Counted from the first letter of the stretch, positions 2-18,508 are shown. The stretch is DNA of 26,847 bases from Candidatus Undinarchaeales archaeon (GCA_030753015.1 JASMDC010000047.1:1-26847); one strand, 5' to 3'. A program made the numbers and translations. The notes: generated from the sequence alone by a model not told the origin.

Positions 2-181
2 AAGAAGGTCGCCCCCAAGAAGGCCCCTCCCAAGAAGGTCGCCCCCAAGAAGGCCCCTCCCAAGAAGGCCCCTTCCAAGAAGGTCGCCCCCAAGAAGACC
101 GCCCCCAAGAAGGTCGCTCCCAAGAAGGTCGCTCCCAAGAAGGCCGTTCCCAAGAAGGCCGTTCCCAAGAAGGCCGTGGTA
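2..181 (+). repeat. 15-bp coding tandem repeat, about 12 copies encoding KKxxP pentapeptides
   Basis: aag aag nnn nnn ccc units: KKVAP KKAPP KKVAP KKAPP KKAPS KKVAP KKTAP KKVAP KKVAP KKAVP KKAVP KKAVV. The array runs off the window start. Confidence 0.95.
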
Positions 182-2290
182 GGGGGTGCCCTTGAGCGGA
201 TCCTTGCAAAGTCCGAGGCCGCAGCCGATGCTTCAAGCGTAGAGGTCCGTGCATCTATGGATTCGTCCCTTGAGGACTCCTTCAACCTACTCGAGCGGCG
301 AGTTGAGGCCGCTTCGATGCTTACCAACGATTTGCAATCACGAGAAGAACCTTGGAAGCTCGCGACCTTCGCGCTCGGTGCCATCCTCATCCTTATCGCA
401 TTTGCTATTGCTACAGGGAACCTCATAGGGGGTGGTCCCTCGTCCTCATCGCCCTTCACACAAGAGGACATTGCTGCTTTTACGACCTTTATGCGAAGCA
501 AGGGAGTTCCTGATGCAGATATCGCTCAAGAGCTCACACTCGTGGGTGTAAGCGCGTCGCTCCCACGCTCCACAACCATAGCTGTGCCGAGGGCCACGGT
601 CAAATCTACAAGCCCCACGACCTCGCCAACACCTACAACTACGGCCATACCCGTTGACGAGAAGTGCGAAGCTTTCATTGATCCTCCCCGGAACATCGGA
701 GAGGGTTATCAGCTGACACCACGCACGACGAACGAAGCGTTCTGCTGTGGTGAGGGTCGCGTCCACATCCTTCAGTTCACCTCACCATCGTGCCCATATT
801 GTGATGCGCAGGAGCCTGTCCTCAAGGAGCTCGAGCGTGAGTTGGAAGGTAGGTTGATCCTAGAGACCCTGTGCGTACCCTCTGTTGAGGGTGATCGTGA
901 GCTCTGCGAGCAGCGAGCTGGCAGCAAGGACGCCGTGACTGCGGCTGAACGTCTCAAGACGAAGTACGAGCTCACGGGTACGCCAACCCTCATCATCAAC
1001 TGCAAGTACAAGCGCTCCGGCACCCTCGCTCTGAGCAAGGGCACCGAGATGGAGAAGGAAGAGATTAAGCGTTTGGTTTGCGCTCTGCTCAAGGACAAAC
1101 CAGCAGCATGCACACCCAAGGATGTTCTTCCTGCGCCACCGGTAGAGATTCACGACATGGGCGGACAGTGGTGCGATCCGGCTGGTAAGTTGTCCATCAT
1201 GGCTTTCTATGATTACAAGTGTCCTTACTCGGAGCGTGCACATGCCACGCTCAAGGAGGTTCTTCCTGCCTTCGGGGACTCTATATCGATCGTGTATAGG
1301 AACTTCCCGCTACCCTTCCATACCGGAGCGGAGAAGATCGCCGCGGCCGCGGCCTGTGTTGCCGACCAGGGGCGGTCCGAGGCCTTCGCTGAATGCGCCT
1401 TCAAGGGATACTTCACCGACAATAAGGACACGGCTGCCGATGACACACTGGAGGCCTGTGCAGTCGAAGCGGGCGTTGACATCGATACCTACGCTATGTG
1501 CCTTGAGACCGGACGGGGCAAGTCCGTTGTCGAGGATGATATGAAGGCCGCAGCGGGCTACGGTATCCTCGGAACTCCGTCGCTTGTCATGGGCTGCACT
1601 CATCGTTTCTCCGGCGCCTATCCCGCCGAGTACTTCACCGTTGTGCTATGCCATCTCCTAGGTGATCAAGGTAAGGCTCTGGAACCGTGTATGAAGGTTT
1701 CCACCAAGAACATCGTTGAGAAGGATGTGTTAGGTCCCTACGAACTCCTGCCTGGACGGGACTCGTGCCACGAGCAGGGCAAGATCAAGCTCGAGATGTA
1801 CATCGACTTCATGTGCCCCTATAGCAACCAGGCGTTCGGTACGCTCCAAGCGCTCCGAAAGGAGATGCCGACGATCATCGAGCTCAACTTACGTACGTTC
1901 CCCTTGCCTTTCCATACGAATGCCGAAGTTATTGCTCAGGCAGCGGTCTGCTCCATCCGCCAGGGAGTTGATACTGAGTTCGCTCAGAGCGCGTTCGATG
2001 CGTACTTCAAGGAAAACATGGACACAACCGATCCCAGCGTGCTCAACGATATAGTCAGTGACCTGGGACTCGACATGGGCGAGTACTCCTCGTGTGTGGG
2101 TGATGCTACCATCGGAGATGTCATCCAGGCCGAGGTCGACCTCGCCAAGGAGCTCGCGATCACAGGAACACCAGCATTCATCGTCGACTGCGACAAGAAG
2201 TTGGTGGGCGCCCTACCGAGGGAGATGTTCCTCGACGCCTTCTGTCTGCTGTTCGAGGAGAGCGAGCGTCCTGAGCTCTGCACGGCCTGA
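2..2290 (+). CDS. Membrane-anchored triple thioredoxin/DsbA-fold protein with Lys-rich N-terminal repeats (5' truncated)
   Basis: Frame is open from position 2 (KKVAPKKAPP...) into the listed 176..2290 ORF. One TM helix (WKLATFALGAILILIAFAIATG), a Thr/Pro linker, then three Trx-fold domains with CPYC (791-802), CPYS (1220-1231) and CPYS (1814-1825), each followed by a GTP cis-Pro loop. Domains 2 and 3 have DsbA-type FPLPFH motifs. Confidence 0.88.
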   Translation, partial: KKVAPKKAPPKKVAPKKAPPKKAPSKKVAPKKTAPKKVAPKKVAPKKAVPKKAVPKKAVVGGALERILAKSEAAADASSVEVRASMDSSLEDSFNLLERRVEAASMLTNDLQSREEPWKLATFALGAILILIAFAIATGNLIGGGPSSSSPFTQEDIAAFTTFMRSKGVPDADIAQELTLVGVSASLPRSTTIAVPRATVKSTSPTTSPTPTTTAIPVDEKCEAFIDPPRNIGEGYQLTPRTTNEAFCCGEGRVHILQFTSPSCPYCDAQEPVLKELERELEGRLILETLCVPSVEGDRELCEQRAGSKDAVTAAERLKTKYELTGTPTLIINCKYKRSGTLALSKGTEMEKEEIKRLVCALLKDKPAACTPKDVLPAPPVEIHDMGGQWCDPAGKLSIMAFYDYKCPYSERAHATLKEVLPAFGDSISIVYRNFPLPFHTGAEKIAAAAACVADQGRSEAFAECAFKGYFTDNKDTAADDTLEACAVEAGVDIDTYAMCLETGRGKSVVEDDMKAAAGYGILGTPSLVMGCTHRFSGAYPAEYFTVVLCHLLGDQGKALEPCMKVSTKNIVEKDVLGPYELLPGRDSCHEQGKIKLEMYIDFMCPYSNQAFGTLQALRKEMPTIIELNLRTFPLPFHTNAEVIAQAAVCSIRQGVDTEFAQSAFDAYFKENMDTTDPSVLNDIVSDLGLDMGEYSSCVGDATIGDVIQAEVDLAKELAITGTPAFIVDCDKKLVGALPREMFLDAFCLLFEESERPELCTA

Positions 2291-2294
2291 GACG

Positions 2295-16754: not shown

Positions 16755-17030
16755 TCAATCTCCTTTGATGGCGAGGGCGGAGACCGAATAGGGCTTCCTG
16801 CAGAGCTCCCCCAGATCCATGTTATCGCCCGGGTACTCGAAGAGCGGAATCTCGGACAGCTTCGCTGCATGGATGAGGTCGTCCTTACCCTTGCAGTTAT
16901 TCGCAACGACCAACAGTTCGGCCTGGCCGAGCTTCGCAGCTTTCATTGACTTGTCGAGACCCCTGATGATCCGGCCCTCGGCGATGGCTTTCTTGATCGT
17001 ACGTTCGACGTTAGTAGTTGTGAGTTCCAT
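16755..17030 (-). CDS. rpl30e: 50S ribosomal protein L30e (eL30)
   Basis: VVANNC, YPGDNMDLGELCRKPYSVSALAI; lies between rpoA'' and nusA. Confidence 0.95.
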   Translation of the reverse strand: MELTTTNVERTIKKAIAEGRIIRGLDKSMKAAKLGQAELLVVANNCKGKDDLIHAAKLSEIPLFEYPGDNMDLGELCRKPYSVSALAIKGD

Positions 17031-17032
17031 TA

Positions 17033-18508
17033 TCACTCCACCTCGCTCAGTGGTCTGGCGAGCAATCGAATGCTCCCCGTTCCGGGGAAGACGGGCTGTC
17101 CAACAGCAACGTTCTCCACGACGCTGCTTAGGCGATCGACATCGCCTCTGATGGCTGCCTTCATGAGGTGCTTCATCGGCACCTCGAAGGATGCGCGCGC
17201 TAGGACGCTTCCCTTCTCTCCCGATACGCCGTACCGCCCGATTGCCTTGATGACACCATCTGAGGTCATTGTGTCGGCAACGAGCATGATGTGGCGGATG
17301 TCCACATTGGTTACACCTGCCTCGGACATTGTATTGGTGATCTCCCTGATGATGCCGTTACGCGCCGCCTCGATGCCCAACACGACAGCGATCTCCTGGA
17401 CGTTATTGGTCGTGGTGCGCTTAACATCAACGCCTTCCATGTTCAAGATCTCTGAGAGGTTCGAACCCTCTGTATAGATGATATACTCGTCCTCTCGCTT
17501 GCGGATCGTGGTGTGAGTGATGTTGGGGATGCCTATCACGTGTGCGTCGGCCAACCGTACTCGTACCGTTTGGAGGTCCTTGATCGTATACTCCTTCTTC
17601 TTGGGCTTGACGATGATCTTGCTCTCTTCGTCCTCCAGAGTAGTGGTGACACCGCGCACGCCTTTCTTGACCGCCTTGAGCACTTCCTTCGGATCTAGCT
17701 TGATGCTCTTGAGCTTCTTCACGTCTAGCTCAGCGACGATCGTGAGGTTGAGAAGGTCGAGACTAATGCCCGTGCAGATATCCTGTACAGCGGTGGACTT
17801 GATCCTTCCTGCGAGGACGATAGATTCGTCCCGGTTGGCACAACTTTTTTCGGTCATGTACACCGTCATGACGGGCGTGCTCGGTTCCTTCCGAGCGTCC
17901 ACGATTTCGATGATGCGCGGAAGACCCAGCGTGACGTTCATCTCCAGGACACCTGCATAGTGGTAGGTACGCATAGTCAGCTGAGTACCCGGTTCCCCGA
18001 TGGACTGTGCCGTGATGGACCCGATGGCCTCGAAAGGGTGGACCTGCATCCGAGCATAGCTCAAGAGCAGGCGCTCGGTCGCGTCCTTTGCCTGGGCAAG
18101 AGTGAGCTTCTCGGACTCGATGATGTCCGCGAATTCCTCTGCGAGCTTTGGTGGCAGGATGCTCCGCACCTCGTCCGTGACGACCTTATCGGCCATAGGA
18201 CGCTTCTTCCTAGGAATCTCCTTCTTCTCTTCGACCACGACGACATCCTTCTTCTTGCTCACCTTCTTTTCGGTGGTCTTCTTGGCCGTCGTCTTCTTGG
18301 CAGCGGCCTTTGTCACCTTCTTTTCGGTGGTCTTCTTGGCCACTGTCTTCTTGGCAGCGACCTTTGTCACCTTCTTTTCGGTGGTCTTCTTGGCCACTGT
18401 CTTCTTGGCAGCGACCTTTGTCACCTTCTTTTCGGTGGTCTTCTTGGCCACTGTCTTCTTGGCAGCGACCTTTGTCACCTTCTTCTCTGCGGTCTTTTTC
18501 TCGGCCAT
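17033..18508 (-). CDS. rpoA2: RNA polymerase subunit A'' (Rpo1C) with a Lys-rich N-terminal extension of about 100 aa
   Basis: [55 protein letters not shown] 18508 overlaps the rpoA' stop (TGATG) with a GAGGTG RBS. Confidence 0.98.
18259..18484 (-). repeat. 54-bp coding tandem repeat x4 plus a partial copy ([18 protein letters not shown])
   Basis: Units start at 18259, 18313, 18367, 18421 and 18475 (partial); the middle three are identical. Confidence 0.95.

Follow-up and report, generated by a model that had tools for sequence, protein, structure and literature searches.

A 26,847-bp stretch of DNA from a Candidatus Undinarchaeales archaeon (GCA_030753015.1, JASMDC010000047.1), referred to here as the window, has been analysed for the lysine-rich, low-complexity tails that are carried by several of its proteins, among them the RNA polymerase subunit RpoA'' and the ribosomal protein uS7. 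The window is one entire contig (C59) of a 3.85-Mb genome, assembled in 117 contigs with a guanine-plus-cytosine (GC) content of 60%, and the public sequencing runs that contain its sequence are labelled marine or seawater metagenome, with one labelled 'metagenome' only. Three tandem arrays have been located in it by Tandem Repeats Finder, with periods of 15 bp (positions 1-176, 11.7 copies, 86% matches), 48 bp (15591-15734, 3.0 copies, 96% matches, with a looser 96-bp reading that extends to 15797) and 54 bp (18259-18496, 4.4 copies, 96% matches). All three are in frame, and each lies at the N-terminus of a recognisable gene, coding for a Trx/DsbA-type membrane protein, uS7 and RpoA'', respectively. 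A sequence-only reading of the same DNA had described tails built from 15-, 48- and 54-bp units on these three proteins, and both the positions and the units are borne out by the repeat search and by translation. The genes of uS7 and RpoA'' are part of an operon of RNA polymerase and ribosomal genes whose remaining members code for the elongation factors EF-1alpha and EF-2, uS12, a NusA-type KH protein, an L7Ae/L30e-family protein, RpoA' and two RpoB halves. Elsewhere in the window (9050-10789, minus strand), a single open reading frame (ORF) of 579 amino acids joins a Memo-like domain to an AMMECR1 domain.

The rpoA'' gene (17033-18508, minus strand) codes for a protein of 491 amino acids that matches Pfam RNA_pol_Rpb1_5 (PF04998) over profile positions 66-263. 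Its N-terminal tail, of about 100 residues (18209-18508, minus strand) as delimited by composition and by the predicted local distance difference test (pLDDT), is encoded by the 54-bp (18-codon) array and consists of 18-residue K/T/A/V units with 32% lysine, the net charge being +28 over the first 130 residues of the protein. The ATG of rpoA'' overlaps the stop codon of rpoA' by one base, and the public gene call (P0009) uses this same ATG, has 491 residues and includes the tail. On the Rpb1 domain-5 profile, RpoA' stops at position 69 and RpoA'' picks up at position 66, so that the tail sits exactly at the A'/A'' split. In an AlphaFold2 model built on a 47-sequence alignment, residues 1-100 have pLDDT values of 34-44 and lack secondary structure, and most of the core reaches 78-94; this tail, the only one that was folded, is predicted to be unstructured. 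The sequence-only reading had also likened the tails to those of histone H1 and of chlamydial Hc2. The RpoA'' tail does share K/A/T-rich repeats with them and gives a weak match to the Pfam family HC2 (PF07382), of 26.3 bits (E 9.6e-6) when the 509-residue ORF is searched and 22.8 bits (E 1.1e-4) with the 491-residue protein, although both scores fall below the curated cut-off of 40 bits. HC2 is a small, free nucleoid protein that consists mostly of lysine-rich repeat. The archaeal repeat, in contrast, is an appendage of RNA polymerase, being the N-terminal fifth of a protein whose remainder is RNA_pol_Rpb1_5, and not a free-standing nucleoid protein; the proposed likeness is compositional only.

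In the sister species, the only relative of the same genus in the comparison set (G001, the genome of the window being G000), public RpoA'' variants of 493, 511 and 529 amino acids have been found, with identical cores and differing by whole 18-residue units. RpoA'' was matched in 30 of the 31 genomes searched and the tail was present only in these two species (2 of 30). Beyond this set, among the best 120 of 6,301 homologues, there are 11 sequences from outside the genus with lengths of 464-498 amino acids, all of which were read. Nine of them carry K/T-rich N-terminal tails of 90-110 residues, on cores that are merely 45-48% identical to that of the window; the other two (P0078 and P0090) have an N-terminal addition of another kind, with about 60 residues, together with a short lysine-rich linker. 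A helix-hairpin-helix domain had been guessed in this addition and was dropped, given that Pfam gave no such match nor one to any other family. Two further homologues, of 433 amino acids, have short lysine-rich N-termini. Judging from these sequences, lysine-rich RpoA'' tails also arose in at least one other archaeal lineage, and such convergence is the best argument for the usefulness of a cationic arm at the A'/A'' position. A literature search for lysine-rich extensions on archaeal RNA polymerase matched work on archaeal histones only. As a separate observation, for one family of the class, RpoA'' was matched within an open frame of 1,260-1,286 amino acids (loci L005, L006 and L007 of genomes G005, G009 and G007), which suggests that A' and A'' are fused rather than split in that family.

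The uS7 gene (14838-15866, minus strand) codes for 342 amino acids from the ATG at 15866, with Pfam Ribosomal_S7 (PF00177) at residues 187-343; a GTG two codons upstream is a possible alternative start. The start lies a few bases from the stop codon of uS12, and the public gene call (P0138) has 342 residues, tail included. The K/E/A/P tail covers about 144 residues (15435-15866, minus strand), as shown by composition and by tail-less orthologs, whose alignments begin at query residues 141-149; within it, the 48-bp (16-codon) array, which in its longer reading occupies 15591-15797 on the minus strand, encodes a 16-residue K/E/P/V unit. In the class, uS7 was matched in 16 of 17 genomes and the tail was found in the two species of the genus and in G003, which has a 1.2-Mb genome and belongs to another family; in the top 120 database matches, long forms occur only in this genus. 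The third tailed protein of the window, the Trx/DsbA-type membrane protein (2-2290, plus strand), has three domains (Pfam DSBA, Thioredoxin_4 and Thioredoxin_2) and one hydrophobic helix, and its 5' end runs off the window. Its tail (coding sequence 2-190, plus strand) is made of KKxxP pentapeptides, each encoded by one 15-bp unit; it precedes the membrane helix in the protein and would be located in the cytoplasm. The true start of this gene lies at the end of another contig (C71, 18013-18263), which shares 71 nucleotides with the window at 91.5%. In the sister species the entire gene is found in one contig, with the same N-terminus and about 13 KKxxP units.

The extent of this kind of sequence in the whole genome has been assessed by a six-frame scan for 30-residue windows with at least 8 lysines and an entropy of at most 2.9 bits. 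The scan returned 68 ORFs, as against 11, 11 and 11 in three within-ORF shuffles; 18 of the 68 were removed by eye before the family search (10 coiled-coil-like sequences, and 8 that were either alternative frames rich in Arg/Lys or ORFs of tiny contigs), which leaves 50 carrier ORFs representing 49 genes. In the operon described above, tails are found on two of the ten ORFs with a Pfam family, and none of the remaining proteins (EF-1alpha, EF-2, uS12, the NusA-type KH protein, the L7Ae/L30e-family protein, RpoA' and the RpoB halves) was flagged. Pfam assigned a family to 26 of the 47 carriers outside the window and none to the other 21; when 10 of these 21 were searched against NCBIfam, only an archaeal signal peptidase I was named. 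Translation and transcription account for nine of the 50 ORFs: uS7, uL5, eL31, eS24, uL29, uL15, RpoA'', and linkers in TFS and in the methionyl-tRNA synthetase (MetRS). The others comprise two ABC ATPases, an MFS transporter, SecF, NrfD, three Fe-S proteins (one of them fused to a T2SSE-type secretion ATPase), CpXC, DUF7121, a JAB peptidase, a TPR protein, DUF2254, the signal peptidase I and several large surface proteins. In MetRS (C29 33250-35427) the lysine-rich linker stands right before the C-terminal tRNA-binding domain, and it resembles the lysine-rich segments appended to eukaryotic synthetases.

A test for enrichment of such tails on information-processing proteins had been suggested, and ribosomal proteins are over-represented among the carriers. 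Five ribosomal proteins (uS7, uL5, eL31, eS24 and uL29) combine a Pfam ribosomal domain with a terminal lysine-rich segment, and uL15 adds a segment that is an ordinary basic loop; a hypergeometric test gives P about 2e-3 for at least five such proteins, with totals of 66 ribosomal proteins in about 3,600 genes that were assumed and not counted. The carriers as a whole span many unrelated classes. An enrichment of membrane proteins is not claimed: a helix was predicted in 26 of the 50 carriers, compared with 44% of ORFs of at least 350 amino acids, by a crude hydropathy test that over-calls, because MetRS was flagged as well.

Lysine makes up 25-39% of the named tails, and the five ribosomal-protein tails have this same range of lysine together with 6-33% glutamate and 14-29% alanine. 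Their net charges fall into two groups. Those of the Trx protein (+24 over 63 residues), RpoA'', uL5 (+25 over 89 residues) and uL29 (+9 over 34 residues) are polycations, and those of uS7 (+5 over 144 residues), eS24 (+4 over 83 residues) and eL31 (-2 over 124 residues) are near-neutral K/E sequences. The description of the tails as disordered and mostly lysine-rich holds for the lysine content and for the disorder predicted in RpoA''; the likeness to H1 does not extend to three of the seven named tails, which are near-neutral K/E polyampholytes. In eL31 (C40 70225-70866) an acidic block precedes the basic lysine repeats, and the same order has been observed in a membrane protein on C117 (2684-3172), whose acidic stretch is a 48-bp tandem repeat in its own right. 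Such an arrangement of acidic and then basic blocks has often been associated with coacervation.

Tails are kept in the sister species on uS7, RpoA'', the Trx protein, eL31, eS24 and uL5, all five ribosomal-protein tails being present there, and a codon-aligned comparison of the two genomes has been used to obtain the ratio of nonsynonymous to synonymous substitution rates (dN/dS). The tails of RpoA'', uL5 and eS24 were excluded because of runs of N in the sister-genome sequence. For uS7, the tail has a dN/dS of 0.25 (dS 0.35) with four in-frame indels and the core a dN/dS of 0.05 (dS 0.46); for eL31, the values are 0.15 (dS 0.37) in the tail and 0.10 (dS 0.39) in the core; and every indel in these two tails consists of whole codons. 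The part of the Trx tail in the window gives 0.17 (dS 0.77), with an alignment that is ambiguous within the repeats. The methionine found just past the tail in the window's genome is replaced in the sister species by threonine in RpoA'' and by valine in uS7, so a possible second start at this position is not preserved in that species. In one study, two runs of RNA libraries, in which DNA may be present, gave contigs that bridge the core-tail junctions at 15359-15620 and 18009-18320. DNA unitigs from two other studies show neither differences nor indels on the pieces that overlap the tails, and break inside the arrays. The absence of the tails from close relatives and a lack of translation had been named as outcomes that would speak against the sequence-only reading; instead, the tails are present in the close relative with dN/dS of 0.15-0.25 and whole-codon gaps throughout, the frame is kept under codon-level constraint, and public gene calls include the tails. 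As judged from these comparisons, the tails are coding and under purifying selection.

The repeats themselves are labile. The uS7 unit has 16 residues in the window's genome and 19 in the sister species, and that of uL5 has 15 and 10, respectively. Assemblies break or carry runs of N exactly at the lysine-repeat arrays, as in the sister genome, where the runs lie inside the RpoA'', uL5 and eS24 tails. Another case is the uL29 tail, which runs off contig C96 (1-357); a matching array ends C48 (35315-35446), and the tail probably continues into it. When the tail-coding DNA of the different genes was compared all against all (blastn-short), the only matches were the join between the two pieces of the Trx gene and low-complexity matches of 15-35 nucleotides. 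A shared mobile module was rejected on this basis, and the expansions are regarded as independent, as had been proposed from the differing repeat units.

Wide differences have been found in the distribution of the tails among relatives. The two species of the genus have genomes of 3.6-3.85 Mb, about 99% complete with 5% contamination; the 15 other genomes of the class that were searched measure 0.6-1.2 Mb, so that the window's genome exceeds those of its relatives in the class three- to sixfold, and the Undinarchaeota literature consulted, including PMC13473441, describes reduced or small genomes only. The uL5 protein was matched in 17 of 17 class genomes, with the tail only in the genus. On the other hand, the C-terminal lysine-rich tails of eL31 and eS24 have been read directly in the sister species and in G003, G011 and G013, and, to judge from long open frames, they may also be present in further members of the class and in several other archaea with small genomes; they persist across families with local GC contents of 43-62%. 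On this sequence evidence the eL31 and eS24 tails are class-wide, and only those of RpoA'' and uL5 are genus-specific. The lysine scan agrees with a habit of the class. The 68 ORFs in the 3.85 Mb of the window's genome correspond to 17.7 per Mb; the whole genome of G003 (1.22 Mb, GC 58%) gave 61 ORFs, or 50 per Mb (shuffles 18-30), and a 1.2-Mb sample of an unrelated archaeon, G022 (GC 55%), gave 13 ORFs, or 10.8 per Mb (shuffles 4-5). The habit is therefore common to the class and not extreme in the window's genome.

A second class of low-complexity tail, rich in glutamine, tyrosine and glycine, is represented in the window by a surface protein (3010-5094, plus strand) whose hydrophobic N-terminus is interpreted as a signal peptide and which has a large domain without a family in the Pfam scan and one C-terminal membrane helix. 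Past the helix, its tail (4897-5091, plus strand) begins with a basic stretch and continues through a Gly/Ala linker into a Gln/Tyr/Gly run, and Tandem Repeats Finder detected no tandem repeat in it, in agreement with its earlier description as a non-repeat tail. The ortholog in the sister species is 88% identical; the tail is 97% identical, with a dN/dS of 0.03 as compared with 0.13 for the rest of the protein. With a filter requiring, per 25 residues, at least 6 Gln, at least 4 Tyr and at least 15 Gln, Tyr and Gly together, 19 ORFs were found in the window's genome (besides the window, on contigs C11, C20, C21, C25, C27, C29, C32, C37, C46, C51, C73 and others), mostly at protein ends adjoining a single membrane helix, with several very large surface proteins (of up to 4,159 amino acids) among the hosts; the same filter gave two ORFs in the whole 1.2-Mb genome of G003 and none in the G022 control sample. 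These tails would lie in the cytoplasm. By composition, the surface-protein tail has the Q/Y/G-dominated low complexity of prion-like (Q/N/Y/G-rich) domains, and archaeal prion-like domains have been reported in a preprint (10.1101/2020.07.20.212902). Tandem repeats are also frequent in large surface proteins: the genome contains 191 tandem-repeat clusters, the majority of which lie in frame in such proteins and are not lysine-rich. Many giant ORFs, in which long tandem repeats of 200-480 bp run in frame, are present, among them those on C40 (8,360 amino acids), C51 (4,159 amino acids), C35, C102, C89 and C94.

Several precedents for lysine-rich tails have been described. Prokaryotic ribosomal proteins often contain low-complexity regions, archaeal S24e being among the frequent carriers, and low-complexity segments with at least 30% lysine have been taken as nucleic-acid binding, with a reported mean length of 36 residues (Ntountoumi et al., 2019; PMC6821194). 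The tails described here resemble those segments in being terminal, in being A/E/K-rich and of low complexity, and in being conserved among orthologs; they differ from them in length (80-145 residues against the mean of 36), in being encoded by young tandem DNA repeats, and, apparently, in being present also on uS7, uL5, eL31, uL29 and an RNA polymerase subunit. Another example is the topoisomerase TopA of Streptomyces, in which lysine repeats of the C-terminal domain stabilise the complex of the enzyme with DNA and give high processivity (Strzalka et al., 2017; PMC5714199). The RpoA'' tail shares with actinobacterial TopA a repeated, lysine-rich, disordered tail on an enzyme that tracks along DNA, in a different enzyme, in another domain of life and at the opposite terminus. 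A TopA-like stabilisation, or an increase in processivity, is proposed as a working model for the RpoA'' tail. Finally, histone-H1-like N-terminal extensions have been found in the insect ribosomal proteins L22 and L23a (Koyama et al., 1999, quoted in PMC1934995). These are also long, Lys/Ala-rich, H1-like and lineage-specific extensions on conserved ribosomal proteins, although in eukaryotes and on other ribosomal proteins. The insect extensions are not known to be encoded by tandem repeats. Both ribosomal proteins and DNA enzymes were already known to bear disordered, lysine-rich tails, and in this sense the present finding is, as a 'system', ordinary.

With moderate confidence, the tails are read here as real in-frame, disordered, lysine-rich extensions, translated from the arrays and each of separate origin in its own gene. 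The pattern of variation suggests that they are lengthened, shortened and re-homogenised as a short in-frame DNA repeat slips or recombines unequally, and selection would hold the reading frame, the composition and the rough length, and not the exact unit. The tails of the window would be a local sample of a proteome-wide habit common to other Undinarchaeota and not a dedicated module. Regarding their function, the cationic tails (RpoA'', uL5, uL29 and the Trx protein) may be arms that hold nucleic acid non-specifically: with such an arm RNA polymerase would bind DNA or nascent RNA more tightly, and the ribosome would do so with rRNA or mRNA, and beside a membrane helix the partner of the arm could be the anionic head groups of lipids; the near-neutral K/E tails (uS7, eL31 and eS24) may be hydrated surface bristles or spacers. 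Several points weigh against this reading. The carriers come from six-frame ORFs, a threshold set by the authors and a removal by eye, and the enrichment of ribosomal proteins depends on assumed totals. Values of dN/dS inside repeats are biased by the choice of alignment and by concerted evolution, and the fast turnover of units together with the variation in copy number would also be expected if most of the length were under little or no selection. The density of lysine-rich ORFs is less than twice that of the unrelated archaeon. Moreover, a single nucleic-acid-binding function cannot cover all the tails, since three of the seven named ones have net charges near zero.

A different explanation is that a repeat-prone genome expands AAG-rich arrays at harmless protein termini, where they are tolerated as by-products with no function of their own. 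This would agree with the abundance of tandem-repeat clusters, which are mostly not lysine-rich, with the instability of unit and copy number between the sister species and with the many functional classes of the carriers; in addition, AAG represents 88% of lysine codons genome-wide, so that the arrays use the common codon. It is possible but doubtful, in view of the low dN/dS of the tails (0.15-0.25 at dS of about 0.35-0.37) with gaps that are all of whole codons, the independent origin of RpoA'' tails in other lineages, the persistence of the eL31 and eS24 tails across families of differing local GC content and the over-representation of ribosomal proteins (on assumed totals) among the carriers. 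That the tails lie outside the proteins altogether, the starts being misplaced and the arrays being untranslated spacers, or the arrays being assembly artefacts, is extremely improbable. It draws on the breaking of unitig assemblies inside the arrays, the copy numbers in the window being those of the assembly, and it has to contend with frames that are open in both species under codon-level constraint, with the close spacing of the rpoA'' and uS7 starts to the preceding stop codons, with the public gene calls for both proteins, with the absence in the sister species of the methionine past each of these two tails and with the identity of the DNA runs of two other studies on the tail-overlapping pieces.

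More ambitious is the proposal of the sequence-only reading that disordered tails are a nucleoid or condensate organising system of this lineage, a network in which multivalent lysine-rich tails would co-localise RNA polymerase, ribosomes and membrane proteins with DNA. Tails on RNA polymerase, on at least five ribosomal proteins and on carriers of which about half have a predicted membrane helix would suit a coordinated system, and so would their conservation in the sister species, the acidic-then-basic blocks of eL31 and of the C117 membrane protein, and the presence in the same genome of a second, conserved class of Q/Y/G tails by membrane helices. The proposal is nevertheless not supported and is very improbable: the tails have no motif or module in common and their charges are heterogeneous, the carriers include many unrelated enzymes, most operon partners are tail-less, membrane proteins are not enriched over the crude background (26 of 50 against 44%), and the scan is denser in the small-genome relative than in the window's genome. 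The tails also differ in phylogenetic range (the genus, two families or, with eL31 and eS24, the whole class), which indicates that they were not gained as a set. A variant in which the cationic tails of RNA polymerase and ribosomes, the lysine-rich tails by membrane helices and the Q/Y/G tails form a cortical network that holds transcription and translation at the membrane, with copy number as a knob for valency, is very improbable. The most likely account remains that slippage supplies lysine-rich disordered ends and that selection retains those that are helpful or harmless.

For the biology of this lineage, the data show how fast such tails can be rebuilt while their charge and length are kept. 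An H1-like tail on RpoA'', placed at the A'/A'' split, has appeared in at least two lineages and exists in variants that differ by whole units; these length variants would provide a natural series for the effect of non-specific DNA affinity on transcription. The genome also has a second, more conserved class of low-complexity sequence, the Q/Y/G tails on large surface proteins.

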